NCBI GenBank assembly: GCA_963849325.1
Contig: CAWKHF010000009.1
Span: 192,001-256,000, forward strand
DNA from: an uncultured Planctomycetota bacterium
GTDB taxonomy: Bacteria > Planctomycetota > Planctomycetia > Gemmatales > Gemmataceae
DNA: 64,000 nt
Reading direction: 5' to 3'
Made by a program: the position numbers and the translations under genes
Shown: one piece after another, positions 1 to 49,896 of the stretch
Position numbering within the stretch: position 1 is the stretch's first letter
How the letters are laid out: each line of letters begins with the position of its first letter
Notes under the pieces: model-generated
The model's input: only the letters and a program-made list of their open reading frames with translations
The model's database searches: none
What the model was told of the DNA's origin: nothing

Positions 1-295
1 CGTCTGGTTCGTGCGCCTGGCGCTGATAGGCCAGTACCGTGCGGACGAGGTGCCGGCACAGGCCGACGGCGGCGCAGGAACAGCGGCCGTCACCCACAAC
101 GGCGCCGGCCGGAATGCGGCACTCGACTCCGTCGGACCACTTCGCCGTCACTTCGCCTTCGGCCGATTCCATCAGCTCGACACGGCATTCGTTCGCCTCG
201 ATTTCGCGCTGGGCGCGCTTGACCGTGCCGCGGTTGGTCAGGGCGGCGAGATCGTCCAGCGACAGGACGAGCAGATCGTTACGGGCCATGCTCAT
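1..295 (-). CDS. yehQ: SWIM zinc-finger protein, YehQ-like (5' part; runs off the window start)
   Basis: Manual translation of the minus strand: [33 protein letters not shown]...GRCSCAAVGLCRHLVRTVLAYQRQ. It has the SWIM CxC..CxH motif and a YehQ-like N-terminus; the start overlaps the upstream stop (ATGA). Confidence 0.8.
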   Translation of the reverse strand, partial: MSMARNDLLVLSLDDLAALTNRGTVKRAQREIEANECRVELMESAEGEVTAKWSDGVECRIPAGAVVGDGRCSCAAVGLCRHLVRTVLAYQRQAHEPD

Positions 296-1430
296 CGCAC
301 CTTTTGGGCCACCCATTCAGCCAGCTCGCCCGGCGTCATCGCGCCAACGTGCGCCCCCAGGGCGACCATGCTGCTCGGCGGTGCCGCGATCGTAGTTCGG
401 CTCGGCCCGCTCGTCCAGCGCCGCCAGCCCCAGCAGCGTCACGCCGCTTTCGATCAGATGTTTCGTCACGGAAAACAGGCGTTCCAGCGGGGCGCCCTCG
501 TAGAAGTCCGTGATGAGGACGACGATCGTTCGCCGCGGGTTGTCCACCAAGCGCGAGGCGTAGGCCAGGGCGCCGCCGATGTCGGTGCCGCCGCCGAGCT
601 GCACCTTCATGATCGCCTCGACCGGATCGGCGCAGTGCTCGGTCACGTCCACGACGTTCGTATCGAACAGCACGAGGTGCGTGCGCAGGCTCTGGATGCC
701 GACGAAAATGGCGGCGGTGACGGCCGCATGGATAACGCTGTCCACCATGCTGCCGGACTCGTCCACGACGACGATCACCTGCCAGCGATCCGCCTGCCGC
801 CGCACGCGCGAATAAAAGTACGGCGTGCGGATGAACAGACGTTGGCTATCCGGATCGTAGTTAGCCAGGTTGCGGCGCAGGGTGGTGCGGGCGTCGAAGT
901 TCTTGGCCACCTTCAGGTGCGAGCGTCGCCGCCGGTCGGCGGCGCCGAGGAACACCGACCGCACCGGCCGAGCCAGCTTCTCCATCATCTGCTCGATCAC
1001 CTTGCGCACCAGCATGCGCGCCAGCGCCAGCACTTCCTGGTTCATCAGGTGCTTGGTGTGCAGGACGGCCTTGAGCAGCGTCGGGCTCGGCTGGGCGCGC
1101 GACAGCAGGTCGGGGTTGGTGACCAACTCCTGGATCTGGTAGCGCTCCAGGGCGTCCTTCTCGATGCGCTCGATGGTGCGGCGTGGGAAGAGCGTGTGGA
1201 CGGCGTTGATCCACTCCGGCACGTTCAGCTGCGAATCTTCCTGGCCGCCGCGCTGGCCGGCGGAGCCGCTGCGGACGGACGTTCCGGCGCGAACCGTACT
1301 CGCGGTTGTAGAGGAAGCCCAGCGCCTGATCGCGCTGCGCTTCGGCGCCTTCCAGCCCGCAGCCCAGTCCCTGCTCGGCGTCGCTGCCCAGCACCAGGCG
1401 CCAGCGGATCAGACCCTCACGCGGATTCAT
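292..1430 (-). CDS. yehP: VWA (CoxE-like) domain protein, YehP-like; split by probable indel errors (~1250, ~370)
   Basis: N-terminus LIRWRLVLG (ORF 861-1430); MIDAS motifs DESGSM, GGGTDIG and LITDFYEG (ORF 317-1222); the shifted frame restores [25 protein letters not shown]. Confidence 0.85.
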
Positions 1431-3792
1431 GAGCGTGTCCCTCGCACTCCGTATTTTTCCAGGGCGGCGAAAAGGCGAGCCTCGAAGGCCAGGGCGCGGG
1501 CGGCCGTGGCCGGGTCCACCGTCAGCGCCGCCAACTCGGGCACCTTCTCCAGTCCCAACGCCTCGCGCAGCGTCAGGGCCAGGTGATGCTTCTCGCGCGG
1601 CGTGAAGTAGGTGAACGCCAAACGCAGGGCCGGCAGCGCGGTCAGGAAATCGTCATCGCCATAGCTGCCGAGCAGGTCGTTGATGCCGAGCACGAGATCG
1701 CGCTGCCGCTGCACTTGCTCGCGGGCCAGGGCGAACAGTCCCGTCAGAAAGTCGCCGAGATGGTCGGGGTCGGCGAACTGGCGCAGGGCCGTCCGCACCT
1801 GGTCAGCGTCGGCGGCCCCCAGCGACCACTGGGCGCCGATCGCGCCGCCGCGCACCAGCGGTCGCTGCGCCCGATCCACGCCGATGCGAGCAAGTACCTG
1901 CACGAGTTCGGAACGATCCAGCTCCAGGGACCGCTCGCAGCGCTCGAAAGTCTCGCGCAGGCCGATCAGTCCTTCGCAGTAGCGGCGCGTCCTGGCCCGT
2001 CACCTGGCCCAGACCTTCCAGCAGCCACAGGCCGCGCTGATAGGTCTTCGACGAGCAAGGGCGCCGATCTCGCCGCGCCCCGCCGTCTCCAGCACCGCGT
2101 CATAACGGTACAGGTAGAGCAGGTGGCCCAGCGCTGCCGGTCACGGAGAAGAAACTGCCGTCGCCGTACGGACCAACTCTTTCAAGCGATCGAGTAAACC
2201 GCCAGCCAGTTCGGTCAACCCGGCCAGGGCCGCATCGAGCAGGAGCAGGGCGGCCTTGCCGGCGTCGCGCTCGATGCCGCCGGCCGCTTCCGTCAAGCGC
2301 GTCGCCGCCGCCTCGGCGAGCGACGGCCCGTACCGCGCCGACTCGATGCACCGCGCGTCGAAGTCGGGACTCCAGACGATGTGCCAGCGCTCCCACACGT
2401 TCGCCAGGTCGTCGCGCACGCTCAGGTCCGTGCCGCCGCTGCGTGCGTAGCCGCTGACGTCGAGCAGTCGCAGTCGATGCAGGACGCGGCTGCGCTGACG
2501 GTCGGCTGTCCTGGTGCGAGATCCAGCTCGACTTCGCGCGGCTGACTCCGCGCCTGCAGACTCGTGCGCCTCCAGCTGCGCCTGGATGTCGGCGGCCAGC
2601 GGCGGCAGCCTGGCGCCCTCGGCCAGCAGGCCGCGCTCCCCGCCGCGCAACACTTCATGCACGGCATCGAGCAGCGGATGCCGACCGCCGCGAGACATCT
2701 CCTCCTTGATGAGCGCGCCGATGACGCCGTCCACCAGATCGGTTCGCCACACCTCGGCATGACCGCGCAGGGCCGCCAGGCCGTGCGCCGTCGTCTCGGC
2801 GGCAATGAGGTCGGCGGCGCTGATCGCTTGCTTGCTCTCGCGCAGGCGCTGGGCCACCCGCTTGAGGAGCGTGTGGTGCGTGTCGGTCTTCCGCTTCTGC
2901 CGGTCGCGCCACACCTGCTGATAGAAGCCCGGATTGGGCATGCCGGCCTCGTAGCCCGTCAGGCTGTCAAGGCGCTCGAACGAGTAGGGCGTCAGCGCGA
3001 TGCCGCGTTCCTCGCCTGGGTCCGGCGGGACCGGGCAGCACTCGGCCGGCTCCGCCATGTCCGCCGGCCCCTGCCCCGTCAACCGCGCGTGCAGGGCGAT
3101 GCTGTGATATCCGCCTGTCACCACGAGGACGCGCCCCTCGTGTTCGTCCAGCATTTGCCGGATCCTCGACGGCCATGAACGCCTCACGGCGGCGATCCGT
3201 GGCGCTGCCGGCGCCTTCGAGCAAACGCATGTTGCCGCACAGGTGATGGCAGCGTTGCAGGTACGTTTCGATTCCCAGCTCCGCGTCCAGCTCGAAGAGC
3301 GTATCCCAGAGGGTGTTGAAGTCCTCGACGCCGAGACGTTTGCACAGCGCGGCGATGTAGCCGCTGCGGCGAAACTCGGCGTCGCTGTAGCGATTGTCGG
3401 GTTCGTCCTCCGCCGCGGCGATGTCGGCCCAGTGCAGGTCGATGAAGTACACGGCCGCCCCGATCGCGCGGGCGGCGAGCAGGGCTTGCCATTCCGGCGA
3501 GTGCTCGCAGAGGGGATAATACGCCCCGCGACGCTGGCCGGTCGGCAGGCGCAGATAACTGTAGATGGCCAGCGGCGGACGGTGCGGCAGGAACAACTCG
3601 TCGATGCGCTCGTTGAAGTCGGCCGGCCCCTCGATGAGGACGGCGGCCGGTCGCAGACGCAGGGTCAGCTCGCGCACCAGGCGCGCCGCCGTCGGGCTGT
3701 GGTGGCGCACGGGGAAGAAGACGACGCGGGCATCCAGGTCCAGCAGTGCGGCAGATCGTAGGTGTACATCGGTGTCCCGCCGCCGCGATCAC
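1427..3792 (-). CDS. yehM: DUF5682 / YehM-like protein; several probable indel errors
   Basis: Consecutive ORF pieces with [57 protein letters not shown] and [16 protein letters not shown]; lies between the MoxR and VWA genes with overlapping stop/start codons. Confidence 0.8.
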
Positions 3793-4931
3793 GGCAGATG
3801 TTCGCGCGCCTCGTAAAACGCCTTCCAGCCGCGGCCCTCGCGGCCCTTGACGACGTGGTTGAAGTAGTGCCGTACTTTCTTCAGATCGTCCGGCGCGTCC
3901 TTGAGCGCGGTGCCGATCAGGTGCTGTACCAGGTGCTCGGCCTTCACGGACCCGGCGTCATAGTACCAGGCGTGCAGGCCGGCCGCGTAGCCGGTCGAGA
4001 CGGCCTCGGCCGTGCTCATGGCCGTGGTCAGCGTCTCCAGGGCGTTGCCGTCGCCGGATTGTCCCGTGCGCAGCTCGTGGAACGTCGTGACCAGCACTTC
4101 GGTCATCTCGGGCGGCAGCGCCTGCGGGATGCCGGCGCGGGCCAGCAGCTTGTCCGTCTCGCGCTGCACCAGGGCCATCTCTTCTTGCAGGTCGGCGATG
4201 GGATGGACGGTCTCGAAGTTGAAGCGGCGTTTGAGGGCGGCGCTCATCTCGTTGACGCCGCGGTCGCGCGTGTTGGCGGTGGCGATGACGTTGAAGCCGG
4301 TGCGGGCGAAGAGAGTGCGGCCGTCGTCGTGCAGTTCCGGGATGGCCATGACGCGGTCGCTGAGGATGGACAGCAAAATGTCCTGCATCTCCAGCGGGCA
4401 GCGCGTCAGCTCCTCGAAGCGGACGATCTTGCCGTCCTTCATGCCGCGATAGAGCGGGGCCGGCACCAGCGAGCGCTCGCTCGGTCCTTCCGCCAGCAGC
4501 AGAGCGTAGTTCCACGAATACTTGATGGCGTCCTCGGTCGTGCCGGCGCTGCCCTGGATGGTAAGCGTCGAATCGCCGGCGACGGCCGCCGCCAGCAGTT
4601 CGCTCAGCCAGGATTTTGCGGTGCCCGGTTCGCCGATGAGCATGAGGCCGCGGTTCGTCGCCAGGGCCACGACGCAGCGCTCGACGAAGCTGCGTTTGCC
4701 GACGAACTTCGCCGCGATGTCGAGTGTGTCGTCGCCCAGCACGAAGCGCACAACCGACTGCGGCGACAGTTTCCAGCCTTTCGGTCGCGGATGGTCGGCA
4801 TCGGATTCGGCGAGCTTCACCAACTCGGCAGCGTACAGTACTTCCGCCGGCGGCCGTTGCAGATCGGCGGCGCCGTCCTCCAGCGGTTCGACGTTACTGG
4901 CCTCATCCATCTTGCTGCGCTTGCGGGCCAT
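3789..4931 (-). CDS. yehL: MoxR-family AAA+ ATPase, YehL subfamily
   Basis: [21 protein letters not shown], Walker [10 protein letters not shown], Walker [29 protein letters not shown]. Confidence 0.92.
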
Positions 4932-4957
4932 CGGGATCCTTTCGCGATGAGACGTCT

Positions 4958-5368
4958 TCAAGGTGTCTGCCAGTCTTCCAGGGGCAGGCCGATGACGCGG
5001 CTGAACTCGGCGGTGTTGTGCGTGACCAGTGTCAAACCGTGCGCGAAGGCGATGGCCGCGATCATCAAATCGTTGGGGCCGATGAGTGTGCCCTTGGCGG
5101 CGAGGTCGGCGCGGATTCGACCGTAATGCTCCACGCACGGATCGTCAAAGGGCACGGAAGAAAAACGCTGACGCAACTGCGCCAACAATCCGAGGTTGTA
5201 CGTTTGCATGGCGGGCGCACCGTGGATGGCGCCGAAGTACAGTTCGCCCAGTACCACCGAGCAGAGGCGGATATCCTTTGGATCGGTCTGCTGTATCTTC
5301 TGAATTAACGCGCGATCTTTCTGACGCAAGTAAGCGATCCAGGCGCTGGAATCGAGAAGATAGACCAT
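4958..5368 (-). CDS. vapC: VapC PIN-domain toxin
   Basis: [47 protein letters not shown]. Confidence 0.92.
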
Positions 5369-5592
5369 TACAGCGGATCCCGTTCTTCGTACTCGCCCTG
5401 CGGCGGCCGTTCCAATTCACCCGCCCATTTCCCCGCCGTGTCCTCGATGAACTTTAACCATTCCTCTCGACTCATCGACGGCTGATCCGGCACGTCAACC
5501 GTCACGCGAACGACCTTGTTCGCGTTCTCCTTGCCCAGCGACAAGGTCAACATCCCATCGGCCCCAACCTGAACGGTCATACTCTGTGTCAT
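5368..5592 (-). CDS. Putative VapB-type antitoxin (74 aa)
   Basis: Small acidic protein coupled to vapC by a TAATG overlap; C-terminus GKWAGELERPPQGEYEERD is typical of such partners. Confidence 0.7.
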   Translation of the reverse strand: MTQSMTVQVGADGMLTLSLGKENANKVVRVTVDVPDQPSMSREEWLKFIEDTAGKWAGELERPPQGEYEERDPL

Positions 5593-5636
5593 GCTTCTTC
5601 TCCTTGAGAACCCGGCTTGGACTCATTGTACTTGAT

Positions 5637-7195
5637 TTACGTTCCCTTCGACGCCAGAACGGCCAGCGTGCCGAGCACTTCGCTGAGCACCACCGGATCG
5701 ACCTGGCCCAGCGACAACGCCTTGTCCACGCCCCAATCCGCATCGCGCAGGAAGTAGCGCTCTTGATCCGCAGGCTGTCACCGGAGCCGGCCGTGTGATC
5801 GAGGATGGCGGTGATCCGGTAGCCTTCATAGCTCTTGTAATGGCCGCCGAAGTACAGTCCCTCCTGCCAGCGACCATCCGTCCAGCCGTGCGACTTCAAG
5901 ATGCCAAGGAAAATCAAGGCCGGGATGTCTTTGCCGCTGAAGCGCGTCAGTTCGCGGGCCGCCTCTTCGCCCGGTTCCAGCGTGTGAACGCGCCGGCCCA
6001 ATTGCGGGAAGGGCGCGAGGATCTCGTAATCGCCGAGAACCTGGCCCCACGCCGCCCGGTCGTCCGGCGTCAGCTGCAACGGGTGCGCCACGCCGACGGC
6101 GCAGGCACCGTCCAGCGTGCAGGGATTGTCGTGCATGTCCGCGTAATCGCGCTCCTCGGTGACGCGAAAGGCACACACCAGCTTGCGGTCGGCGTTGTAA
6201 ACACCCCACAGGAGGCGGCGCACCAGGTTAATCATCAGCGGATGGCGTACCAACAGCGCCTCGAACTCAGGAACGCCCCAGCGTCGGCCGGAGATCATCG
6301 CCTGTTCGAGCCGATACGCCTGCGCCTTGACCGTCTCGCGCACCTGCTTTTTGAGCAACTTCCATGCGGCCACGGCGGCGCAGGCCTTGTCCGCATCGTC
6401 CTTCGCTCCCGGCTTGGGCAGATCGCTCTTGAGTTTGCCGGACTCGTCGCGGACCAACGGCTTGAGGTCGGGACCGAGCACGAAGGAAAACTGTCGCGGG
6501 CCAAAGTCGAACACCCGACCGCCGCGCTCGTCGAGGTCGAGATCGGGGACGATGCGGTCCTCCAGCTGCGTCCGGCTCAGACCGCGCGCCGTGGCGATGT
6601 CGTCCATGAAGGTGCGCGCACGGTTTTGCAGTCCCTTGAACTTGACCTTCTGGGCAATGCTGTTGAGCTGCATCAGGGCCGTGTCGGTGCCGATGGTGCG
6701 CAGACATTCCAGGCCGAGGACCGCCCGCTGATGCAGGCTTTCGCCGGGCCAGGCGCGGAGCCGCGGCGTCAATTTCAGGGCCGAGCCGTCGCCGCCGAGG
6801 AGTCCCAGGGCTACCAGCGCCCACTTGTCCCGTGATGGCGAACCGCCAGCCTGCCAGAGTTCAAACAATTCCCAGGCGAATGCATCCAGCACGGCGCGAT
6901 CGAGGTGGTGCGGGAGGGCCGTTACCAGCGGCTGCGGAGTGTCCAGCGTGCTCTTGCGCAGGGCGGACAGGACCGCTTGGACCTGGTAATCGTTGAGTTG
7001 ATGCGTGCCGATGGTCAGCGGCGGCAGCGCCGCGAGTCGCACCCAGTTGGGCAGGAGGGGGGGAAGCTGTTTCCGCATGTCGGCGAGGATGGTTCGCAGC
7101 CATCCCGGCGTCGTCACGTCGTCGAATGGAAAGCGGGCCGTGCCGGAGGGGGGCTGCGTATTGGTGTGCTCCACCGTGGTGACGAGCGCGCTCAT
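5637..7195 (-). CDS. DUF4132 domain protein (YehI/MolR-like), paralog 2, no WGR domain; indel near 5757
   Basis: FAWELFELW..SRDKWAL, WPGESLHQRAVLGLECL, LEDRIVPDLDLD, RLEQAMISGRRW, PFPQLGR; the shifted frame gives ...QVDPVVLSEVLGTLAVLASKGT*, matching the end of paralog 1. Confidence 0.85.
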
Positions 7196-7225
7196 GGTTC
7201 ACTCTCTGGGATCTGGTTGGGACGT

Positions 7226-10028
7226 TTACTTGCCCTTGGACGCCAGTGCGGTCAGATCCGCCAGCACTTCGCTGACGGCCAGCGGATCGATTTCCTTCAG
7301 GGGCAGGAGATTCTTGTGAGACGGATAGGACTCCGGAGTATACGTGCCCTGCAAGAAGAAGCAGCGCGTGATCTTCTGATCGCCACTGTCGTTCATCATG
7401 CCGAGCATGACGCCGTCCGCGTTCTCGAGGATCGCCGTCACGTCCGCGGCGGGGAACGGCTTGGAAAACTCCAGGATAACGCCGTGATTGTCGGCACTGC
7501 CGCGCGTCCAGCCGAGCTTCTCCATCGTGCCCATCAGCGCCGCCGCCGGGATCTTCACCTTGTCGAAGCGCTTGATTTCACTGCCCTTGGTCTCCTCGCG
7601 CTCGAGCGCGAAGACAGGCCGCCCGAGTTGCGGAAAGGGAGCGATGATCTCATAATCGCCGAGTACCTGGCCCCACACGGAACGGTCGTCCTCGCTCAGG
7701 TGCAGAGGGTGGACGATGCCGACCGCGGTCAAGCCATCCCGTTTGCAAGGACGGTCCTCCTTGTCCGCGTACTCCCACTCTTCGGTGACGCGGAAGGTAC
7801 ATGCCAGACCGCCCTTCCGGTCGTAGCCGCCCCAGACGAGGCGGCGCACCAGGTTCATCATCAGAGGATGACGGACAAGTAGTTGCTCAAATTCTTGTAT
7901 GTTCCAACGTCGCCCCGTGACCATCGCCTGTTCGAGACGAAACGCCTGTACCTTGAGGACGTCGCGCAGCTGTTTTTTCAGGATCTTCCAGTCGGCGAGG
8001 GCGGCGTGGGCCTTGTCCGTTTCATCCTTCGCTCCGGGTTTGGGCAGGTCGCTCTTGAGCTTGCTGGACTCCTCGCGCACCAGCGGCTTCAGATCGGCGT
8101 CGAGAACGATCGTGAAACGGCGCGGCCCGAAGTCGAAAACGCGCGTGCCGCGTTCGTCGAGGTCAAGGTCGGGCACGATGCGATCTTCGAGCTGGGCGCG
8201 ATTCATGCCACGATCCCTGGCGATCGCCTCCATGAATTCCTGGGCCTTCTTCTTCAACCCCTGGAACTTCAGCTTCTGGGCGATGCCGTTGAGTTGCATC
8301 AGCGCCGTATCGCTGCCGATGCTACGCAAACACTCCAGGCCCGTGACCGCCCGTTGATGCTGGCTCTCACCCGGCCAGGCGCGGAGCAGGGGAGTGAGTT
8401 GGAGAGCACAGCCGTCGCCGCCGAGATGGCCCACGGCGAGCAAGGCCCATTTCTCCTTCGAGGGAGCGCCTTCGTTCAACCACGACTCGAACAGTTTCCA
8501 GGCGAAGGCGTCGCGGGCCGGTGGATCGAGGTTGTCCTTGATGGCCGTCACCAGCGGGGCCGGCGCTCCCAGCGGACTTTGCCGCAGTGCCGTCAGAACG
8601 GCCTTGACCTGGTCCTCGTTCAACCGTCGTTCTCCGACGATCAACGGCGGCAGGGTCGCCGGTCGCACCCACGCGGGCACCGTCGCCGTCCCGGCGGTCT
8701 TCAGGGCGTCGCGCAACCATTTCGGCGTCGTGGCGTCGTCGAAAGCTTCGCGGACGATCTCCACGCGCTCCAGCACCTCGTGACGCACCTTGGCGACGGC
8801 CTCCGGAGCGGCCTGCTGGAGTTGTTCTTGGATGAAGTCCGCGTGCCCGGCCTGCTTCGCCTCGCGCAGGGAATCGAGGGCGGCGTCGGCGAGCTTGCCG
8901 CGCCCGACAGCCACCGGGATCAGACCGGCGATGGCGTTGCCGGGGTTCTCGTCGAGCCATTGCCGCGCCAATGTCGGAGCCTTGGAACTGGCTTTCAGCT
9001 CCAGCATGTACGGGGCCGCTTCCGGTGCCTGGACCAGGCAGAAAGATTCGAGCAGCTTGCGGGCCTCGTCTTTATTGGTCTGTGCCTGGATCGCGTCGCG
9101 CACGTAGTCGAGGCCGCTGAACTCGGTATGGGCCAGCCAGGCGCGGATGTGTTCCGGGCTGCGAAAGCGCAGCCGAAGACGCCGCACGTGGCGATCAACC
9201 CGTTGCGGAGTGCCCAGCCCGAAGATCATTTGCTGCGGCATGTGGTAGACATCTTGCCACTCCTGACCCTGGTAGAAATCGTCGGGCCAGCTCTCCACGA
9301 CGGCGAGCACCTCGTCGTGCATGCCGCACAGCGCGGCCAGGAAATAGACCATCGCCGGCCGTTTGTAATAGTCCCTCGGCCACAGCGAGGGATCCAGGTG
9401 AGGACGGAGCTGCTGCCGCAATTCTCGCCATAGGCGATCCGATAGGTAAGGGAATAGAAAACGAGCCATCCAGGAGACCATTTCCGTATGTGCCGTCCAT
9501 GACGCCTTTGCCAATGTGCCGCTCGTCGAGGACGGTGAGGAAATCCTCGGCGCGAATGTCCTCGCGGAGTAGTTGGATGGACATACTCGCCAGGATCGGA
9601 TGGCCGACAAGGAGAGGTTTCGGGTCCGGTCGCGGCAGGGGCCGGCGCGGCCGCCACGTCGCGCGGTGCCAGTCTTCCGGGTCCAGGGCGATCGTCCGCG
9701 TCATCACGGGAACCACGGCGGCTTGTAGCGGCGGCGGAGTCACCGTCTCGTCGGATGGCTTCTTCGGCTTGGCTTTGGTTTTCGCAGGCGAGGGAGGCGG
9801 CGCGGCGGTTGCGGGGGTGCCGACTTCGTTGTAGCCTTTTTTCGTTTTCTCGGCGATGAGTTTGTCGGCGGCCTGCCGGGCGGCGTCTTCGCTGGAGAAC
9901 TTTTTCGTCTGCTCCTGGCCGCGGCTGCCGATGCGGCCGAACTCGACGGTGAACTGTTTGCCTTCGACCGTGATGGCCCAGAACTTGTCCGACGAACCTT
10001 CGCGGAACTGGAACTCGCGGCGACTCAT
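7226..10028 (-). CDS. WGR domain + DUF4132 protein (MolR/YehI-like), paralog 1; indels around 9480-9610
   Basis: N-terminal WGR (EGSSDKFWAI..VEFGRIGSRGQ..KLIAEKTKKGYNE), Pro/Lys linker, then a DUF4132 core (WPGESQHQRAVTGLECL, LEDRIVPDLDLD, RLEQAMVTGRRW). Confidence 0.88.
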
Positions 10029-10116
10029 GGCTTCTCCCGGCTGGGATGGAGGAATGGCCCTCTCGTTGACGGAGCCATTCTGTCGCCTGGAATCGCCGAA
10101 GTCCAGCGTCGTAGCG

Positions 10117-11154
10117 TCACGATGCCGAGGACGCGATGCGGCCCTCCATCGGGCTGGACGCTTGCGCGTACAGCTTGCGCGGGATGCGGCCGGCCAGGAA
10201 GGCTAAGCGTCCAGCGGCGCAGGCGTGGCGCATGGCGTGGGCCATGCGCAGGGCGTCGCGGGCATGGGCGATGCCGGTGTTGAGCAGCACGCCGTCGCAG
10301 CCCAGCTCCATCGCCACCGCCACGTCGCTGGCCGTGCCCACGCCGGCATCAACGATTACCGGATAATCCGGATCGCCATCCTTCAAATATTCCAGAATGA
10401 TGCGGAGGTTGTTGGCGTTGAGGACGCCCTGGCCGCTGCCGATGGGACTGCCGGCCGGCATGACGCTGACGGCCCCCGCCGCCTTGAGGTGGCGGGCCAC
10501 GATCGGATCGTCACTGGTGTAGACCAGGACCTGAAAGCCCTCCTGGACGAGTTGTTCCGTCGCTTTCAACGTGGCGATCGGATCGGGCAGCAGCGTTTTG
10601 ACGTCGCCGAGGCACTCCAGTTTGACCCAGTCGGCCCCACGGTTGCCGAGGTTGGTTAACAGCTCGCGGGCCAGGCGAGCGTGGCGAACCGCGTCCTCGG
10701 CGCTGAAACAGCCGGCCGTGTTGGGCAGGATGGTGTAGCGCTTCAGGTCGAGGTAATCGAGGATGTTGCGGCCTTGCTTGTCCACCAAGCGCTCGCGGCG
10801 CACCGCCACCGTCGTCACCTCGCAACCGCTGGCCGCCAGGCAATCACGCATCAGCTCGTAACTGGCGTACTTGCCCGTGCCGGTGATGAGGCGGCTGTGG
10901 AAGGTGAACTTGCCGATGACGAGCGGTTTGTCGTCCGGCTCCGCGTCCGGGGCGCCGCCGCCGACGAGCGTAACGATCTCGATGTGGTCGGCCGGCGCCA
11001 GTGTCTGTTCCTCGTGCCGCACGGCCGGCACGACCTCGCCGTTGACCTCGACGGCGACCCGGCGACGGTCGTAGCCCAGACGTTGCAAAAGCTCGGCCAC
11101 CGTCAGGGATTCGGGAAGGGTGCGCGCCTCGCCGTTGACCGTGCATGTCAGCAT
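10117..11154 (-). CDS. thiG: ThiS-ThiG fusion (sulfur carrier + thiazole synthase)
   Basis: ThiS part ([26 protein letters not shown]) followed by ThiG ([44 protein letters not shown]). Confidence 0.95.
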
Positions 11155-11231
11155 GTGCCGTCTCTCCTCTCCGCGTTGGCCGTTTGCTCGATAGGCGCCT
11201 ACGTTATCACTATACACACTACGCCGCGTGT

Positions 11232-11270
11232 CGTTTAGCCGCGCGCTCCGCTGCGCGTCGCGGCGAAACG
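11232..11270. repeat. Internally deleted copy of the 31914-31978 palindromic element
   Basis: cgtttagccgcg joined directly to cgctccgctgcgcgtcgcggcgaaacg: the left end plus the right arm of the 31.9 kb palindrome. Confidence 0.75.
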
Positions 11271-11305
11271 GAAGGCGGATCGGATCGGTGAATCGAAGGT
11301 ATCCC

Positions 11306-13177
11306 ATGATCGTCATGTCCTCGCACTACGTCGCGCATACCAAAGTCCCCACGCTCGTCTTCCCCACCAGCGCCCAGGCGACACGGCACGTCGCCCTGAT
11401 GATCGAAAGCCTCATTCGTCAGAACAACTCCGCCGGCCGGCCCACCGTGCTCGGCCTGCCAACCGGCTCCACGCCGGTCGGCCTGTACCGCGAGCTAATC
11501 CGTCTGCACCGCGACGCCGCTCTCGACTTCTCGCGCGTCCTCACGTTCAACCTCGACGAATACTTTCCCATGCAGCCGGACGACCCGCAGAGTTACCGGC
11601 GCTGGATGCAGGAGACGTTTTTCCAGCACGTCAACATTCCGCCACAGAACATCAACGTCCCCGACGGCACCATCAAGCCGGAGGACGCCGAGGACTACTG
11701 TCATCGCTACGAACAGAAAATCCGCCGGGCCGGCGGCATCGACCTGATGCTGCTGGGCATTGGCCGTACCGGACACGTCGGTTTCAACGAACCCGGCTCG
11801 ACCCGTCACAGTCGAACGCGCCTGGCCACGCTCGACCCGGTGACGCGCCGTGACGCGGCCAGCAGTTTCTTCGGCGAGGACAACGTGCCGCACCAGGCGT
11901 TGACCATGGGCGTCGGCACCATCCTCGACGCCCGCAAGATCGTGCTGCTGGCCTTCGGCGAACATAAGTCGCCGATCGTGCAACGGGCCGTCGAGGGGCC
12001 GGTCACCGATTCGGTGCCCGCCAGCTTCTTGCAGCAGCACCCCGACGCCACCTTCCTTCTCGACCAGGCGGCCGCCGCCGAACTCGCCGCCTTCGCCCGG
12101 CCGTGGAGCCTCGGGCCGGTCAACTGGACGCCCGCCCTCATCCGCAAGGCCGTCATCTGGCTCAGTCTCAAAGTCGAGAAAGCCCTGCTCAAACTGTCCG
12201 ACGACGATTTCCGCGAACACGAGCTGTACGAACTGCTCCGCGAATACGGGCCGGCCAGCGTCCTGGGCCGGCGCGTCTTCGACGATCTGATGGCGACCCT
12301 GTGTACCGAGCCGGGCGGCGCGAGCCGTGTACGGCTTTGATTTTCAGCCCGCACCCCGACGACGACGTCATCAGCATGGGCGGCACCCTCATCCGCCTGG
12401 TCGAGCAGCGTCATCGCGTCCATGTCGCCTACATGACCAGCGGCAACATCGCCGTCTTCGATCACGACGCCTGGCGCTTCGTCGATTTCGCCGTCGCCTT
12501 CAACCGTCTGTTCCAGATCGACCAGGAACAGACGGAAAAGCTGCAGGAGCGGATGCAGACTTTTCTGCACTCCAAGAAACCGGGACAGGCGGATTCCGAA
12601 GATTTACTCAAGGTCAAGGCGCTCATCCGCGCAGACGGAGGCGCGCGCGGCGGCCCTGGCCTGCGGCGTGCCGCCCGAACAACTCGAATTCATGGATCTG
12701 CGTTTCTACCGCACCGGCACCATCGCCAAGGCGCCCATCCATCCGCAGGACATCGCCGACATCACCGCCCTGCTCGAACGGCTGCGGCCGGCGCAAATCT
12801 ATGTCGCCGGCGAACTGTCCGATCCGCACGGTACGCACCGGGTTTGCGCCGAGGCCATCTTCGAGGCCGTCCGCGCCGTGCGGCAACACGGTCCGAACTT
12901 CCAGGTCTGGCTCTACCGCGGCGCCTGGGAGGAGTGGGAACCGCACGACATTGAGCGTGTGGTCCCGCTCAGTCCCGAAGACGTGGAACGCAAGAAACAG
13001 GCCATCTTCCGCCATCAGTCGCAGAAGGACCGCGCAATGTTTCCCGGCGGCACCGACCGCCGCGAATTCTGGCAGCGCGCCGAGGACCGCAACCGTCACA
13101 CCGCCCGTGTCTACGACAAGCTCGGCCTGCCCGAGTTTTACGCCCTGGAAGGCTTTGTCCAGTGGCATTCGGAGTAG
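11306..13177 (+). CDS. nagB: Glucosamine-6-phosphate deaminase fused to a PIG-L/LmbE deacetylase-like domain; indels ~12325 and ~12630
   Basis: [33 protein letters not shown]; then [51 protein letters not shown]. Confidence 0.92.
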
Positions 13178-14119: not shown

Positions 14120-14149
14120 TTGACTAACTGATGAGTTAGGCTAACCTAA
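14120..14149 (+). promoter_or_regulatory. Putative promoter with an overlapping DtxR/IdeR/MntR-type operator upstream of mntH
   Basis: TTGACT at 14120; ATGAGTTAGGCTAACCTAA (14131-14149) matches 16/19 positions of the DtxR/IdeR consensus TTAGGTTAGSCTAACCTAA. Confidence 0.7.
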
Positions 14150-14187
14150 TTGCAGTAGTGCTCCCGATGCTGGGAGGATATTCCTTG

Positions 14188-16136
14188 ATGGCGTCCCCAT
14201 CGAATGCACCTTCGCTGGAAGAGATTCACGGCTCGGTCCCGATCCCGACGCGCGGCTGGCGGCGTTTTCTCGCCTTTTCCGGCCCAGCGTTCATGATCAG
14301 CGTCGGCTACATGGACCCGGGCAATTGGGGCGCCGCCCTGTCGGCCGGCTCCAAGTACGGGCACCGGCTGATCTGGGTGCTGTTGATGTCGAACCTCATG
14401 GCGTTGCTCCTGCAGGGTCTCGCCACCCGGCTCGGCGTCGTCGCCGGCCGCGACCTGGCGCAAGCGTGCCGGGAGAGCTATCCGCGACGCACCGTGTTCG
14501 GCTTGTGGGTGCTGACGGAAATCGCCATCGCCGCCACCGATCTGGCCGAGGTCATCGGCACCATTATCGCTCTCAAACTTCTTTTTAACTTCCCCTACTT
14601 GCTCGGCCTGGCCGTGGCCGCCGCGGATACGCTGTTGCTCTTGGCCTTGCAGCGCCGCGGAGTGCGCTTACTGGAGTTGTTGACGCTCGCCCTGGTGGCG
14701 GTGATCGCCGGCAGTTTCATCGCCGAGATTGTGTTCGCGCGCCGGACTGGGCGGCGGTACTGCACGGCTTCGCGCCGGGCCTGGCCCCGCACGATTACAC
14801 CGGCAGTCTGTACGTCGCCATCGCCATGCTTGGCGCCACCGTCATGCCGCACAATCTCTATCTGCATTCGGCCCTGGTGCAGACGCGCGCTTTCGCCCAG
14901 ACGACCGAAGGTAAGCGGTTGGCCTGCCGATACAACCTGCTCGATTCGACGCTGGCCCTCAACGGCGCCTTTTTCATCAACGCGGCCATCCTCGTCCTGG
15001 CAGCCACGAAGTTCGAGACGGAAGTCGAGACGTTGCAGGAGGCCCACGAATTGATCGGTTCGTCGGTCTGGGGCGGTTACCTGGCCGGCGTACTGTTCGC
15101 CATCGCGCTGTTGGCCTCGGGACAGAGTTCGACGCTGACCGGCACCCTGGCCGGACAGGTGGTGATGGAAGGCTTCGTCCAGCTGCGCGTACGGCCGTGG
15201 GTGCGCCGGCTGGTGACTCGTCTGGCCGCCCTCCTGCCGGCCGTGTTCGTGCTGTCGTTGGCCTCGGCGGACGAGGGAGGCGCCAACGCCACGGACGAAC
15301 GGTTGTTGCATCTGCTGGTGTTCAGCCAGGTCGTGCTCAGCTTCCAGCTGCCCTTCGCCATCATCCCCTTGGTGCAGTTCACTAGCGATCGGCGTCGCAT
15401 GGGCGTCTTCGCCAGCCCGGAATGGCTGAAGGGACTGGCCTGGGTGTGTGCCCTGATCGTCGTGGCCTTGAACGTCGTGCTGATCGGTTTGCAGATGCGC
15501 GAGTGGGCCGAGGCGGTCGAGAAGGTGGGAGGGCAGGGTCTGTGGATCTATGGCACCGTGGGGCCTGTCGCGGCCGTCCTCGCCGGCTTCCTGGTGTGGG
15601 TGACGTTTTATCCCCGTTACCGCCGCGGTGAGGTCCGGCCGGCCCTGCTGCCCGCTCCGGAACTGCCCGCCGTCCGCTATCACCGGATCGGCGTGGCGGT
15701 CGAATTCGCCGGGGCTGACGACGCGGTGCTGGCGCAGGCGGCGGCCGTGGCGCGGACGCATCAGGCGCCGCTGCTGCTCATCCACGTCGTCGAGGGGTTA
15801 GTCGCCGACTTCTACGGTGCCGCCGGCGACGATCAGGAAAGCCGGGCGGATCGGCTGCGGATGGGAGAGTTGGTCAAACACATCCAGGGCGAGGGACTGC
15901 GAGCCGAGGGGGTGCTGGGCTATGGCGAGCCGGCCGGGGAACTGGTGCGCATTGCGAAGGAACGGCAGCTGGACTTTCTCGTCCTGGGCACGCACGGGCA
16001 TCGCTTCTTCGCCGACCTGGCGCTGGGACAGACGGTCTCCCCCGTGCTGCACCGCCTGCAAATTCCCATCCTCGTCGTGCCCACGGCGCTGTCTACTGCC
16101 AAATCGAGCGAGGTCCATTCCGAGCCTGAAGCGTAA
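14188..16136 (+). CDS. mntH: Nramp-family Mn2+/Fe2+ transporter with a C-terminal universal stress protein domain; indel ~14740
   Basis: SVGYMDPGNW, AIAATDLAEVIG, GATVMPHNLYLHS, SGQSSTLTGTLAGQVVMEGF, SQVVLSFQLPFA; C-terminal LIHVVE..LVLGTHGH..PILVV. Confidence 0.93.
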
Positions 16137-24672: not shown

Positions 24673-24755
24673 AATGAACCACGGATGAACACAGATGAAC
24701 ACGGATAAAACATAAATGAATATCTGTGTTTATCCGTGTTCATCTGTGGTTCATT
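24673..24755. repeat. Inverted array of a 10-bp unit (ACACRGATGA)
   Basis: aatgaaccacggatgaacacagatgaacacggata ... tatctgtgtttatccgtgttcatctgtggttcatt. Confidence 0.88.
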
Positions 24756-24773
24756 TTCTTTCTCTATTTATTC

Positions 24774-26672
24774 ATGTCCCTCGATCATCTCCAACGTCTC
24801 GCCGAGTTGCTCGAACTCGAATCGGAAGCCGAGGCGCGGCAAATCCTGGAGCGAGTGCGTCGCCACAAGGGGAGCGCGGCCGAGCAGAGCGGCGATTGCC
24901 TTGTCGATCTCCTCGTCCGCGACGAGTACGCGGGACTGGGCGGTCGCTCACTTCTGACGCTGGGCAAGCGCAAGGAGAATCAGCCGTTGCCGTGGACACG
25001 CCTGCAAGCGGGCACGCCCGTGCTGCTGTCGCCACAGGCCGGAGGCCATAAGAACTGGCGAGGCGTTGTCAGCGAGCGCGGCGATACGTTCCTTCGCGTC
25101 GCGTTCGACGAACTACCCGACGAGGAGCGCGAGCAAGCCCTGTATCGCCTCGATCTCGCCCACGACGAGGCGGCCCGGATGCGCCAGCGTCAGGCGCTGG
25201 ACCGCGCCCGCACGGCGCGCGGCGACCGCCTCGCCGAGCTGCGCGGCGTGTTGCTCGGTGAGACGCCGCCGTCGTTCGCTCCGTTGTCCGATTTCGTTCC
25301 GCTGGACGCCTCCCTGAACGAATCGCAGCGCGAGGCCGTGCGCTTGGGCCTGGCCGCAAAGGATGTCGCCGTCATCCACGGGCCGCCAGGCACCGGCAAG
25401 ACGACGACGGTGGTCGAACTGATCCGCCAGGCCGTGCGCCGCGGCGACAAGGTACTGGTCTGTGCCCCGAGCAACCTCGCGGTCGATAACCTGCTCGAAC
25501 GCCTGCTGGCTCACGGTGAGCCAGCCGTCCGCCTGGGCCATCCCGCTCGTGTATTGCCGCAGCTGCGCGAGCATACGCTTGACCTGATGGTCGAGAACCA
25601 CGCCAACGTCAAGCTGGCCCGCAAGTTCGCCAAGGAGGCGTTCGCCCTGTTTCGGCAAGCCCGCAAGTGGACGCGGGCACGCCCCGAGCCGGGCGCCGGC
25701 GCGACCAGCGTCAGGAAGCGCGAGCGCTGCTGGCCGACGCTCGCCGCCTGGAAGGCCAGGCGGTCGAGAGCATCCTGAATGCGGCCCCCATCCTCTGCTC
25801 GACGACGACGGGACTGGACAGCGCGATCATCGGCCGCCGGCCGTTCGACGTACTGGTCCTTGATGAGGCGTGTCAGACGACCGAGCCGGGTTGCTGGGTG
25901 CCGTTGTTGCGCTCGGCGCGCCTCGTGCTCGCCGGCGATCACTGCCAATTGCCGCCGACCGTGCTGTCGCGGGAGGCCGTTGGCCGGGGCTTCGGCGTCA
26001 GTCTGCTCGAACGACTGGTGGCCCTGTACGGCAACGTGGTGACGCGCCGCCTCGACGTGCAGTATCGCATGAACGAAGCCATCATGGGCTTTTCCTCGCG
26101 CGAGTTCTACGACGACGAGTTGGTCGCCGACTCTACCGTGGCCGGGCATCGCCTGTGCGACTTGCCTGGTGTGCGGGCGGAGCCGCTGACCGAGCAGCCG
26201 GTGCAGTTTCTCGACACGGCCGGCGCAGGCTACGACGAGGAAGTCGAACCCGACGGTGAAAGTCGGCTCAACCCGCAGGAGGCGTCCCTGGTCGCGCGCA
26301 AGGTCCACGCCCTTGTGGGGGCCGGCGTCTCGCCCGCGGACATCGCCGTGATCGCCCCCTACGCCGCCCAGGTGCGCCGTCTGCGCGAGCTACTGCCGTT
26401 GCCCGGACTGGAAATTGACAGCGTGGACGGCTTTCAGGGACGCGAGAAGGAGGCGGTTGTTTTGTCGCTGGTCCGCAGCAACGTCGAGGGTGAGATCGGC
26501 TTTCTCGCCGACGTGCGCCGTCTGAACGTGGCCCTGACGCGCGCCCGCCGCAAGCTGCTCGTCATCGGCGACAGCGCCACGCTCTCCGTCTTACCGTTCT
26601 ATCGGCGTTTGTTCGAGTATTTCGAGGAAATCGGGCGCGTATCAAACGGTGTGGACGGAACAGATGCCGTAA
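24774..26672 (+). CDS. SF1 helicase, Upf1/IGHMBP2(SMUBP-2)-like; indels ~25700 and ~26632
   Basis: LNESQREAV, HGPPGTGKTTT, CAPSNLAVDNL, DEACQ, AGDHCQLPPTV, QYRMN, DGFQGREKEA, RRLNVALTRARRKL. Confidence 0.9.
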
Positions 26673-26704
26673 GGCTCCGCCGGTCGGGCTTTTCGGCATA
26701 CTTG

Positions 26705-26908
26705 TCACGTCTGAGGTTCTTGGACGAGCCGCGCGAGGATTTCTGCTGCTGGTATCCACACCACCGCCCCGTCCTGCCAGGTCGCCATCGGCAACCCCGC
26801 TTGGGCGTGCCGGCGAACCGCTTCCTGGAACGCTCGACGCAAGGCCGCCTCAACCAGCGCGGGATTCGAGAGAAGTGCCGTAATCGAAGGTCTATCCTGT
26901 TCGCTCAT
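26705..26908 (-). CDS. Small protein coupled to the zeta-like ATPase (possible antitoxin)
   Basis: 67 aa, ALRRAFQEAVRRHAQAGLPMATWQDGAVVWIPAAEI; TAATG overlap with the upstream gene. Confidence 0.65.
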   Translation of the reverse strand: MSEQDRPSITALLSNPALVEAALRRAFQEAVRRHAQAGLPMATWQDGAVVWIPAAEILARLVQEPQT

Positions 26909-27496
26909 TATGCCCTACCTTGTATCTGCCGCCATGTCTCGTTCCATCAATCCGGTTTCATTCCCCTGACGCATCGCCTTGAGCGACCAGCTGCGGAACA
27001 GCGATGACGCTGTTGTCATAAACTTGCCAGTAGCTTGACCAAAGGGCGATAGAGCCGAAAAAAGTTCGAGAGACTGCGCGGGTAACGTCGGCGAATTGTT
27101 ACTTCCGGTATGTTGTGTCCACCCATTCGCACCCGATCTGCCACTCGAGCAACGGCCAGGTCCGCGCTCTTCAACCAGAAGTATAGCAGATGAACAACGT
27201 AGCCTGTCTGTCGCAGATCCTCCAGCCAGGCGAGCGAGAGTTCGCCCGGCCAGGGTCGTCTCGAATGCGAAATCGGCACGCTGCTCGGCGAGGGCGTGCA
27301 ATCGCTCCAACATAATGCGGCTCGCCTCAAGGGCCGCGCTCTCGGGATCGAACCCGGCCAATCCCTGAGCGATGACGTCGGCATTGACGAAGGTCATCAC
27401 CTGGAGCGTCTCGGCCAGCAGCGTGCGCGCGGCGGTCGTCTTTCCCGCTCCGTTGGGACCGGCCAGCACGATCAGACTGGGAGAAGCCTCCGCCAT
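26908..27496 (-). CDS. Zeta-toxin-like P-loop ATPase/kinase; several indels
   Basis: LAGPNGAGKTT, FVNADVIAQGL, FAFETTLAG, LAVARVADRVRMGGHNIPE..RRRYPRS, WQVYDNS. Confidence 0.8.
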
Positions 27497-31718: not shown

Positions 31719-31913
31719 GATCGCCAGTCCCGTCCTGTGGCCGGACGGGCAACCGCGCTCGTCCGGACTTTTCTGGCCTCCATGATACTCAAGTGGCGAA
31801 CGAAACGCGCTGGCGGATAGCATATCACCGCGAAAAGAGGACCGCGACCTTCTGGAGTGGTCATGTCGCGGCGCGGCACCCGGAACGCGATCAGAATCAT
31901 CGAAAAGGAATTT

Positions 31914-31978
31914 CGTTTAGCCGCGACGCGCAGCGGAGCGCGGGGCTGTCGCGCTCCGCTGCGCGTCGCGGCTAAACG
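31914..31978. repeat. REP-like perfect palindrome (29-bp stem)
   Basis: cgtttagccgcgacgcgcagcggagcgcg-gggctgt-cgcgctccgctgcgcgtcgcggctaaacg. Confidence 0.9.
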
Positions 31979-39518: not shown

Positions 39519-39698
39519 GATGCGTCCTCTACCCGTGCGGAAACCCCCTGTTCGGGATGCTACGGTGTACCACGGCGGGCGTCAAGGAAGCGGCGTGACG
39601 AGGGCTTTCGGCCTCGTTTTTTCGCCTGCCAACTGCGGTGGTCTTCGTTGATGCACAGGAGGTAGAATACCATGCAGGTACACGAGGGAGGACAGCGC

Positions 39699-49329: not shown

Positions 49330-49896
49330 TCACTCGAAGAATCGGCGCACGGGGACGCTCAACTCGCCAAGGATGTCCGGCAAGTGCAGTTCGTCGTCCG
49401 CGTGCAGGGTGCGCGGAAGCTCATCTGCCCGGTACACCTGGACCGTTTCGCTCACCTGGTCCAGCAAGCCGACGACGATAACTCCCGCTTCCAGGTACTC
49501 TCCCGCTTTGGCGATTAGGCGCGACCAGCGTTCGGTCGGCGAGCGGACCTCGAACACGAGTTCGGGCACGACATCGAGATAGCCGGCCGGCAGCGGCCCT
49601 TGTGGAACGCGGGCATAGCTGTAGTAGGCTACGTCGCCGCCGCGGAGTGTATCGGGGTCGCGCTCGGTGAGAATACCCCCGTCATTACTCACGACCCGAC
49701 CCATTCCCCGACCCCGGACGTAAGGATTAATCAGCGTGGTGATGTTGGCACAAATCTCCCCGTGGCGCGGTGCCGGTACGTTCATCTCGACGATCCTCCC
49801 GCGGACCAACTCGGTCGGAACCCCCCGGTCGGGAAGCTGCGTGTACTCCGCGGCGCTGAGCAGACGTTGGGGGGAGGAGGTGGTGGAAGGGACCAT
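49330..49896 (-). CDS. Uma2 (DUF820) family endonuclease-like protein
   Basis: [41 protein letters not shown]. Confidence 0.88.

Follow-up and report, generated by a model that had tools for sequence, protein, structure and literature searches.

What does a bacterium do with a gene set in which a MoxR-type AAA+ ATPase and a CoxE-type VWA protein are encoded together with WGR-DUF4132, DUF5682 and SWIM zinc-finger proteins? The question is raised by positions 1-10028 (minus strand) of a 64,000-nucleotide stretch of contig CAWKHF010000009.1 (assembly GCA_963849325.1, an uncultured Planctomycetota bacterium), referred to throughout as the window; DNA past the window start lies outside our data. 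Pfam searches and a SWIM motif confirm the six co-oriented minus-strand genes of the original prediction, with the domains and the order stated there: WGR-DUF4132, DUF4132, MoxR (YehL-like), DUF5682 (YehM-like), VWA_CoxE (YehP-like) and SWIM (YehQ-like). Two further genes had been missed, a vapB-like open reading frame (ORF) and vapC between the second DUF4132 gene and the MoxR gene, and with these the operon segment counts eight genes. The likeness in gene order to E. coli molR/yehI-yehL-yehM-yehP-yehQ also holds: RefSeq annotation gives DUF4132(molR)-yehI-yehK-yehL-yehM-yehP-yehQ in the same strand arrangement, at protein identities of 27-56% (YehL 56%, YehP 50-54%, YehM 31-46%, YehQ 27-40%, and 31-46% for the C-terminal module of MolR/YehI). 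The best MoxR homologues belong to named Gemmataceae, and planctomycete-typical DUF1559, DUF1501 and PSD1 genes occur in the window. The locus is a Gemmataceae-type (Planctomycetota) orthologue of the E. coli cluster, cut by the window edge and carrying a vapBC insert. From gene order, translational coupling, fusion and conservation we tentatively read the cluster as a MoxR-VWA remodelling machine whose WGR-DUF4132 input subunits can be exchanged and which may have a link to DNA damage, an account that we regard as plausible and still somewhat short of probable.

In such a machine the four translationally coupled core proteins would form one ATP-driven assembly, with the YehL-like MoxR as AAA+ motor and the CoxE-type VWA protein as its adaptor, bearing a metal-ion-dependent adhesion site (MIDAS). 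DUF5682 would be an alpha-solenoid scaffold whose Tiki/ChaN/esterase-like N-terminal domain may provide a catalytic or ligand-binding output, and the double-SWIM protein would be a further scaffold or a nucleic-acid contact. The DUF4132 proteins would act as exchangeable input or client subunits, docking to the core through a conserved C-terminal part of ~480 residues; the WGR head, together with the hypervariable middle, would read a cue that probably comes from nucleic acid or DNA damage, upon which the MoxR-VWA pair would remodel or activate the complex. We favour a single machine because of the linkage of the core genes, the overlaps at their junctions, a DUF5682-VWA fusion and the gene blocks that stay intact in permuted loci; the input role of DUF4132 is proposed because its copy number varies, it has been duplicated within lineages, its middle is hypervariable and its WGR part matches known WGR domains.

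A profile-guided scan of one genome per species returned at least 588 loci, of which 80 were kept for comparison; these span at least 10 phyla (Planctomycetota, Cyanobacteriota, Melainabacteria, Abditibacteriota, Verrucomicrobiota, Pseudomonadota, Spirochaetota (Leptospira), Myxococcota, Actinomycetota and Acidobacteriota). Genes for DUF5682, VWA and SWIM proteins stand beside MoxR in 60 of the 65 loci that extend 5.5 kb or more downstream of MoxR, the five exceptions being three stand-alone cyanobacterial MoxR genes (L006, L015, L017), locus L037 and the degraded locus L073, in which VWA is broken and SWIM is missing. A stop/start overlap of 1 or 4 nucleotides joins DUF5682 to VWA at 41 of 59 junctions and VWA to SWIM at 42 of 62. 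The same two junctions overlap in the window (ATGA at 1427-1430 for DUF5682/VWA; 292-295 for VWA/SWIM, where the SWIM ATG at 295 overlaps the VWA TGA at 292-294). The claim that most of the genes overlap in this way stands for these two of the five junctions between named genes and fails for the other three, which are gapped by ~21 to ~705 nucleotides; vapB and vapC also overlap. In two loci DUF5682 and VWA are read as one ORF with a low-complexity linker (L018 11172-14822, 1216 residues; L022 11091-14795, 1234 residues), a Rosetta-stone hint that the two proteins touch. Two Propionibacteriaceae loci (L055, L068) are circularly permuted, reading DUF5682-VWA-SWIM-WGR/DUF4132-DUF4132-MoxR, and keep both blocks, DUF4132-MoxR and DUF5682-VWA-SWIM. 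Median identity to the window protein is 62% for MoxR and 57% for VWA; mean pairwise identity is 39% for DUF5682, 32% for WGR-DUF4132 and 29% for SWIM. On the MoxR tree the phylum labels need 19 changes, with a minimum of 9 and a mean of 43 after shuffling, which suggests mostly vertical inheritance with some transfer.

As reference for frame alignment and residue numbering we used L003, an intact relative from a Gemmataceae genome bin with two WGR-DUF4132 proteins of 968 and 1090 residues, MoxR of 374, DUF5682 of 775, VWA of 378 and SWIM of 666. The window MoxR gene (3789-4931, minus strand, likely start ATG at 4931) is intact and encodes a 380-residue AAA+ ATPase of the YehL subfamily (Pfam AAA_5, 4e-36 on ORF 3789-5138), one of seven MoxR subfamilies; RavA and YehL are the two MoxR proteins of E. 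coli (PMC3893208). It is 56% identical to E. coli YehL over ~345 residues, 56-82% identical to its counterparts in the 80 related loci and 92% identical to a further homologue, P0002. The Walker A sequence GEPGTAKS is present, and the motifs FEE, ATAN and KRRF are invariant in the family alignment. The VWA gene (292-1430, minus strand, ~378 residues; Pfam VWA_CoxE, 4e-48 on ORF 317-1222) has an intact MIDAS, its translation holding the residues DESGS...GGGTD...ITD; in the family alignment D223, S225, S227 and D308 never vary and T282 is kept in at least 90% of the sequences. VWA lengths in 64 loci range from 200 to 399 residues (median 375), with neither a C-terminal extension nor a fused effector. 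The operon had been called complete, which it is not, as the window holds ~98 of ~666 codons of the SWIM gene, at its N-terminal end (1-295, minus strand; ORF 2-316). Pfam finds no match in this fragment, and its CSCx5CRH motif is the CxCx5CxH signature, invariant across an alignment of 42 orthologues; the Serratia orthologue of the fragment matches Pfam SWIM. The fragment is 70% identical to residues 15-92 of the 666-residue L003 protein, which itself resembles YehQ/SWIM clusters (score 0.97), and 40% identical to residues 18-90 of E. coli YehQ. A sequence-profile search of the PDB with the SWIM protein found nothing.

The DUF5682 gene (1427-3767, minus strand, start approximate) encodes ~770 residues in three frames and is matched by Pfam DUF5682 in three pieces, at 2967-3710 (profile positions 4-179), 2141-3187 (181-496) and 1427-1903 (579-726). 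An AlphaFold model of the L003 orthologue (predicted local distance difference test, pLDDT, 87.3 and predicted template modelling score, pTM, 0.84 for the full protein; pLDDT 87.5 for the first 280 residues) predicts an alpha/beta domain at the N-terminus (~1-260) and, after it, an alpha-solenoid of ~500 residues. A Foldseek comparison of the full-length model with the PDB gave no match at E ≤ 0.001, weak alpha-solenoid look-alikes alone, and a PDB sequence-profile search with DUF5682 found nothing. When the N-terminal domain is searched with Foldseek, the erythromycin esterase EreC takes ranks 1-2 (E 0.02, template modelling score 0.33-0.36), ChaN rank 4 (E 0.1) and an Ere-like structural-genomics protein rank 45. 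Among 41 N-terminal domains, 13 weakly match Pfam Cofac_haem_bdg (best E 0.0026), a family that Pfam describes as 'Tiki superfamily, ChaN', and one each weakly matches Erythro_esteras and TraB_PrgY_gumN. Residues E45, E91, D109, E157, R179, R192, E193 and H219 are invariant in this domain. Invariant His, Glu and Arg residues fall in the motifs RHH (a consensus), EGP, RExxM and GGxH, which may resemble catalytic motifs of Tiki-type enzymes. The domain appears to resemble, weakly but consistently, and in a likeness newly seen here, the Tiki/ChaN/erythromycin-esterase fold: it shares with the Tiki, TraB, ChaN and erythromycin-esterase proteins an alpha/beta fold, has EreC and ChaN as its best structural matches and shows recurrent weak Cofac_haem_bdg matches. 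It differs from them in a helical insert (~110-180) and in its fusion to the ~500-residue alpha-solenoid, and all of its scores are sub-significant. Because two methods agree and the residues are invariant, we consider the N-terminal domain the sole candidate, besides the ATPase, for an enzymatic or ligand-binding function.

The variable part of the cluster lies upstream of this core. The MolR-like WGR-DUF4132 gene (7226-10028, minus strand) is read as two overlapping ORFs, one with Pfam WGR (9195-10028, E 2.8e-19) and one with Pfam DUF4132 (7226-9610, E 7e-49). In sequence-profile searches of the PDB the WGR region finds WGR domains of known structure (2ra8 at 4.6e-25, PARP3 at 3e-4), and nothing was found for the DUF4132 part; the best ESM Atlas score for the DUF4132 C-terminal module was 0.79 (Y4lR, HEAT clusters), under the level of a lead. 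The second gene (5637-7195, minus strand; Pfam DUF4132, 7e-52 on ORF 5495-7195) is a short paralogue lacking WGR; on the tree it is closest to the first gene (62% identity), and both form a supported group with the two copies of L003. In the 60 loci that reach 8 kb or more upstream, the number of DUF4132 copies is 0 (14 loci), 1 (27), 2 (12), 3 (4) or 4 (3), and the core is accompanied by at least one DUF4132 gene in 41 of the 53 loci flanked on both sides. In the 21 multi-copy loci the nearest tree neighbour of 27 of 49 copies lies in the same locus, which points to repeated, lineage-specific duplication. Tandem WGR-DUF4132 genes of a Rhodanobacteraceae locus (L072) have near-identical upstream regions (1750-1894 and 5905-6049), from which it follows that each copy was duplicated along with the leader or promoter belonging to it.

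Mean pairwise identity within the WGR-DUF4132 alignment, in L003 numbering, is 41% for the WGR head (residues 1-90), 19% for residues 91-250, 25% for 251-455, 48% for 456-640, 44% for the DUF4132 domain (641-845) and 28% for the tail (846-936). The middle, between WGR and the C-terminal module, is hypervariable, at 19-25% against 41-48% for the parts that flank it, and the tail carries a DPxxxSE motif in which the Glu never varies and the Ser hardly does. The best 120 long homologues of the C-terminal module divide into 87 with WGR and DUF4132 and 33 with DUF4132 alone, and in none of them is an effector or any other Pfam domain fused to DUF4132. In E. coli the DUF4132 region is kept less well than the core: it is found at 80% coverage or more in 4084 of 5426 complete genomes, as against 5203 of 5426 for yehLMPQ, and best matches below 95% identity number 2253 and 921, respectively. 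The original prediction had set variable WGR/DUF4132 genes against a conserved core, and this picture is borne out by a copy number of 0 to 4 beside a core present in 60 of 65 loci, as well as by the lineage-specific duplications and the hypervariable middle.

The suggestion of a damage response finds support outside the window. molR appears in a review table of genes under LexA control whose SOS box is known (PMC6590174; likewise PMC11039860), and in D. radiodurans DR2173 (WGR) and DRA0166 (DUF4132) are strongly upregulated on DdrO depletion (PMC8533742). A near-consensus SOS box, CTGGATAAAATTACAG, lies at 2657-2672 of the E. coli locus, 10 nucleotides before the start of the first DUF4132 gene. 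Elsewhere we searched for the LexA consensus motifs CTGT-N8-ACAG and GAAC-N4-GTTC; strict boxes of either form were found just upstream of the operon in none of 38 loci, and in six gamma/beta-proteobacterial loci the 300 nucleotides before seven other WGR-DUF4132 starts hold no SOS-like box. The 88-nucleotide region upstream of the window operon contains an unrelated inverted repeat alone, and the planctomycete LexA motif may differ from the consensus used. The link to DNA damage is thus supported in two other species only.

Several of our observations weigh against a linked, damage-responsive machine. As regards linkage, the stand-alone cyanobacterial YehL-like MoxR proteins (L006, L015, L017) are 67-73% identical to that of the window and have no partner genes within 10 kb (L005 has ~3 kb downstream alone); WGR-DUF4132 proteins exist in cyanobacteria, so that the parts of the operon may be unlinked there. 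In 8 of the 53 fully flanked loci the core has no DUF4132 gene within 10 kb and the upstream genes are unrelated, housekeeping ones, from which it follows that DUF4132 is either not obligatorily linked or acts from elsewhere in the genome. As regards the sensor, WGR has no tblastn match in 31 of 60 loci, and many DUF4132 copies lack it. As regards damage, an SOS-like box with one mismatch precedes one of eight gamma/beta-proteobacterial WGR-DUF4132 gene starts, that of E. coli alone, and strict GAAC-N4-GTTC boxes are absent just upstream of the operon in 30 actinobacterial loci, so that damage regulation is not shown to be general. As regards the candidate output domain, no Foldseek match of the DUF5682 N-terminal domain reaches E ≤ 0.001, its Pfam matches lie far under the gathering score and cover ~30 residues, and its sequence profile retrieves designed-repeat proteins alone from the PDB, with no Ere or ChaN chain.

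Among the alternatives, the one that survives best, and which we nevertheless find doubtful, is that the cluster is an anti-phage or conflict system, in which WGR-DUF4132 would sense invader nucleic acid and the MoxR-VWA core would set a threshold and trigger an output that is either toxic or protective, along the lines suggested for the MoxR-vWA ternary conflict systems (Kaur et al. 2020, PMC7159879). A conserved core accompanied by sensor-like genes that vary, duplicate and evolve fast would suit such a system, as would the transfer made likely by the 19 label changes on the MoxR tree (minimum 9). The yeh cluster resembles the ternary systems in joining a MoxR-vWA pair to further components and in being common in Myxococcota, Actinomycetota, Planctomycetota and Cyanobacteria; the pair of the ternary systems is traced by the authors to the CoxD-CoxE lineage (PMC7159879). 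The match of the window MoxR to Pfam bpMoxR, which models the MoxR domain found in MoxR-vWA-beta-propeller ternary systems, is weak (24.1 bits over 50 residues, below the cut-off of 27), and the bpMoxR label is borne by many MoxR homologues in precomputed annotation. Unlike the ternary systems, yeh-type vWA proteins have no effector domain at the C-terminus, and the third components are DUF5682, SWIM and DUF4132 rather than VMAP/iSTAND, judged from the neighbouring genes, with no VMAP/iSTAND model search made. SWIM, WGR and YehL are named nowhere in the 2020 conflict-systems paper (PMC7159879). In E. coli, mutation of hns/stpA raises the expression of yehL and yehM, and H-NS binds nearby (PMC3686432), a further point in favour of conflict.

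Comparison with defence models speaks on both sides. The WGR part matches the PADLOC model WGR_XIII at 7e-9, a name that we presume to refer to retron type XIII, but among the 5027 models of PADLOC-DB v2.0.0 none matches MoxR, DUF5682, VWA, the SWIM fragment, either DUF4132 part, VapB or VapC. Flanking genes were scanned at E ≤ 1e-5 for 126 ORFs from 19 loci (of 303 selected from 48 loci; 177 were left out). Nine of the 126 match PADLOC, as kinase, cyclase, methyltransferase, ABC-like ATPase and CARF-like pieces, which are generic domains; there is no complete defence system and no sign of enrichment among them, a result obtained with no matched background and so not proof of absence. The upstream neighbours that we inspected are housekeeping genes. 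A yehL-like gene is found in 5219 of 5426 complete E. coli genomes, at 1-2 places per genome (median 1), and 5224 of 5227 of these places are chromosomal, unlike typical accessory defence genes. DUF5682 is rare on mobile elements, being found in 39 of 72,556 plasmid records, largely of megaplasmid or chromosome size, and in 1 of 50,697 phage records, and no effector domain is fused to DUF4132 or VWA. The tests of the anti-phage idea in the original prediction have, in short, given nothing for it.

A toxin-antitoxin module at the junction of DUF4132 and MoxR bears on the same alternative. The pair at 4958-5592 (minus strand) is a type II VapBC module, a PIN toxin gene after a small overlapping gene, of which the antitoxin half is putative. 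vapC (4958-5368, 136 residues) has a PIN match spanning positions 1-117 of 120 (Pfam 1.2e-17) and matches NCBIfam VapC models at 7.7e-32 and 5.3e-19, both under the equivalog cut-offs. The 74-residue ORF before it (5368-5592), whose stop overlaps the vapC start, has no Pfam, NCBIfam or PADLOC match, and its position and overlap with vapC suggest a vapB antitoxin. GC content is ~0.60 at vapBC as against 0.65-0.70 around it, and tblastn finds neither gene in the 80 related loci (the genome of the 92%-identical MoxR P0002 is not among them). The DUF4132-MoxR junction is otherwise tight in relatives, with a median gap of 4 nucleotides and gaps above 350 in 4 of 55 loci. Inserts inside the operon occur elsewhere, at L003 11366-12067, L009 13620-14681, L025 7646-9801 and L077 9120-9896; these hold a HEAT-repeat protein, an IS110 transposase, an aldo-keto reductase with an ORF of no assigned function, and an IclR regulator, and no toxin-antitoxin pair. 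In most E. coli a type I toxin-antitoxin locus, z3289/z3290, lies at the yehI-yehL junction (PMC2887945). That planctomycete and E. coli carry a toxin-antitoxin locus at the same junction, which would favour a conflict system, may be coincidence, a permissive site or a functional tie. A possible second element of this kind lies 30 kb away in the window, where a single 403-residue ORF (39666-40874, plus strand) joins a DarT domain, an ssDNA thymidine ADP-ribosyltransferase (2.4e-45), to part of a Macro domain (1.1e-05); the ORF is either a toxin-antitoxin or defence element like DarT-DarG in one frame, or a fusion or frame artefact.

The second alternative, unlikely in our estimate, is a chaperone or cofactor-insertion system of the CoxD-CoxE, NorQ-NorD or CbbQ-CbbO type, in which MoxR and VWA would mature or repair a metallo-protein complex, the ChaN-like domain of DUF5682 would handle metal or haem, and the DUF4132 proteins would be clients or adaptors. 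As in those systems and in RavA-ViaA, an AAA+ MoxR is encoded beside a MIDAS-bearing VWA protein, here one belonging to Pfam VWA_CoxE; every characterised MoxR subfamily listed in two papers matures protein complexes (PMC3893208, PMC7159879). The weak likeness of the DUF5682 N-terminal domain to haem-binding ChaN fits with this, and the strong conservation of MoxR and VWA across phyla, together with the near-universal presence of the genes in E. coli, gives the cluster a housekeeping look. The known pairs have, however, no counterpart to the DUF5682, SWIM and variable DUF4132 genes, and unlike them the yeh-type loci encode no target enzyme nearby: none is conserved beside the operon, and the flanks differ from locus to locus. 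WGR and SWIM are modules for contact with nucleic acids or proteins rather than cofactor handlers, repeated duplication and variability would be unusual for a fixed client such as DUF4132, and the response of the E. coli genes to loss of hns/stpA (PMC3686432) likewise speaks against a chaperone.

A more ambitious form of the remodelling-machine reading can also be stated, and we hold it to be a long shot. Here the cluster would be an uncharacterised machine triggered by nucleic acid or damage, in which WGR-DUF4132 sensors act on the MoxR-VWA motor and this in turn on a Tiki-like DUF5682 hydrolase mounted on a double-SWIM scaffold; toxin-antitoxin modules would have been recruited more than once to the junction between sensor and motor, as regulation or output. 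The whole would amount to a chromosomally fixed stress or immune system, apart both from known defence families and from MoxR chaperones.

The remaining alternative turns on the state of the sequence. Alignment of the L003 proteins to the window reveals seven frame changes in four of the six genes, near 9640, 5734-5780, 3200, 2165, 1975, 1280 and 350, with homopolymer runs of four or more at three of the seven; the genes broken in the window are single ORFs in L003. The change near 9640, with a CCCC run at 9641, separates WGR from DUF4132, and the alignment of the 968-residue L003 protein switches between the two frames at 9622-9654. The change near 5734-5780 masks the true C-terminus of the second DUF4132 gene, which ends at the TAA at 5637-5639; its C-terminal 'DPVVLSEVLGTLAVLASKGT' sits in another frame and matches the C-terminus of the first gene. 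The single 775-residue L003 ORF aligns across the DUF5682 frames on either side of the changes near 3200, 2165 and 1975, and the L003 VWA protein aligns in three frames around those near 1280 and 350 (~codons 52 and 354). A +1 frameshift-prone site reported from experiment for yehP, at codon 291 (PMC2790909), was considered as a cause and does not match these positions. Split Pfam domains occur elsewhere in the window in Nramp-Usp, an AAA_11/12 helicase, a Ser/Thr kinase-AAA_16 protein, acetyl-CoA synthetase, a sulfatase, urocanase, an aminotransferase and DUF1501 (examples of split-gene regions are 14140-16133, 24720-27004, 28161-31916, 49519-52085 and 60755-62300). GC content at third codon positions is 0.79-0.88 in all gene pieces, as in coding sequence, and identity to L003 is kept on either side of every break; a frame plot of this quantity is too coarse for placing the changes. 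Because like splits hit unrelated housekeeping genes across the window and the codon-position GC stays coding-like, the frame changes are most likely assembly indel errors and not pseudogenisation.

Decay has been seen in relatives, in E. coli E66 (L081, with an internal stop in the molR-like gene and a frameshifted yehL), in O157:H7 (L082, with an internal stop in yehM), both according to RefSeq, and in L073. That the operon here is a decaying pseudogene cluster, its seven frame changes real and the foreign, lower-GC vapBC cassette that splits it a mark of lost function, is nevertheless very improbable, given that at least eight unrelated window genes (acetyl-CoA synthetase, urocanase and Nramp among them) are split alike, as by assembly-wide errors, and that MoxR, vapB and vapC are intact. 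As it stands the locus, incomplete and full of frame errors, is unusable.

The surroundings of the window operon do not look like a defence island on its upstream side: the neighbours are thiS-thiG, a glucosamine-6-P-isomerase-like gene, DUF2203 and Nramp-Usp. The intergenic region of 88 nucleotides after thiS-thiG, read from the sequence (10029-10116, minus strand), contains the inverted repeat GAATGGC-N15-GCCATTC at 10080-10052, ~25-50 nucleotides before the ATG of the WGR gene, possibly an operator or a stem-loop, and a Shine-Dalgarno-like run, GGGAGAA, precedes that ATG. A promoter scan of positions 1-11500 gave no promoter-like site and no sigma-70 consensus match, a terminator scan of the same positions gave 4 terminator-like sites, under the shuffle mean of 6.5, and no Rfam family was matched in window positions 1-12000. 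Farther off, at 49333-50112 (minus strand), lies a Uma2-family putative restriction-endonuclease-like gene. A Uma2 gene (9392-9964) is also found directly upstream of the stand-alone YehL-like MoxR of the cyanobacterial locus L017, and in L015 the MoxR gene comes directly after kaiA and kaiC.

Set beside its E. coli counterpart, the window cluster has the same domain set in the same order on one strand, and likewise a toxin-antitoxin locus between the last DUF4132 gene and the ATPase gene. It differs in lacking a yehK homologue, in its short second DUF4132 gene, which is without the N-terminal half, in the type of the toxin-antitoxin locus (type II vapBC as against type I z3289/z3290), in its neighbours (thiS-thiG as against metG and yehR) and in showing no recognisable SOS-type box upstream, where a planctomycete operator may differ. 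The neighbours around the cluster are the same in both E. coli genomes that we opened, and an O157:H7 genome has an unannotated gap of 1.24 kb. One sublineage of ST131 is reported to carry a blaCTX-M-15 transposon in the 'DUF4132 region' (PMC9334617), and a yehP knockout is cited as having a swarming phenotype (PMC2790909). In the literature that we searched, which includes few subscription journals, yehL, yehM, yehP and yehQ appear in gene lists alone, no paper on DUF5682 was found, the combination of MoxR, vWA, SWIM and WGR returned nothing on this cluster, and WGR domain with phage defence returned ADP-ribosylation work alone.

The yeh cluster is thus a widespread and known gene set still without an established function, one of the larger conserved E. 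coli gene sets of which this can be said. With a defined core, a variable part and a candidate catalytic domain whose invariant residues can be named, the question of its function becomes directly testable. If the damage or conflict reading is true, a MoxR-VWA motor combined with a Tiki-like domain, a SWIM protein and WGR sensors would be a new stress or immune architecture; if the chaperone reading is true, the cluster would be a further MoxR client system.

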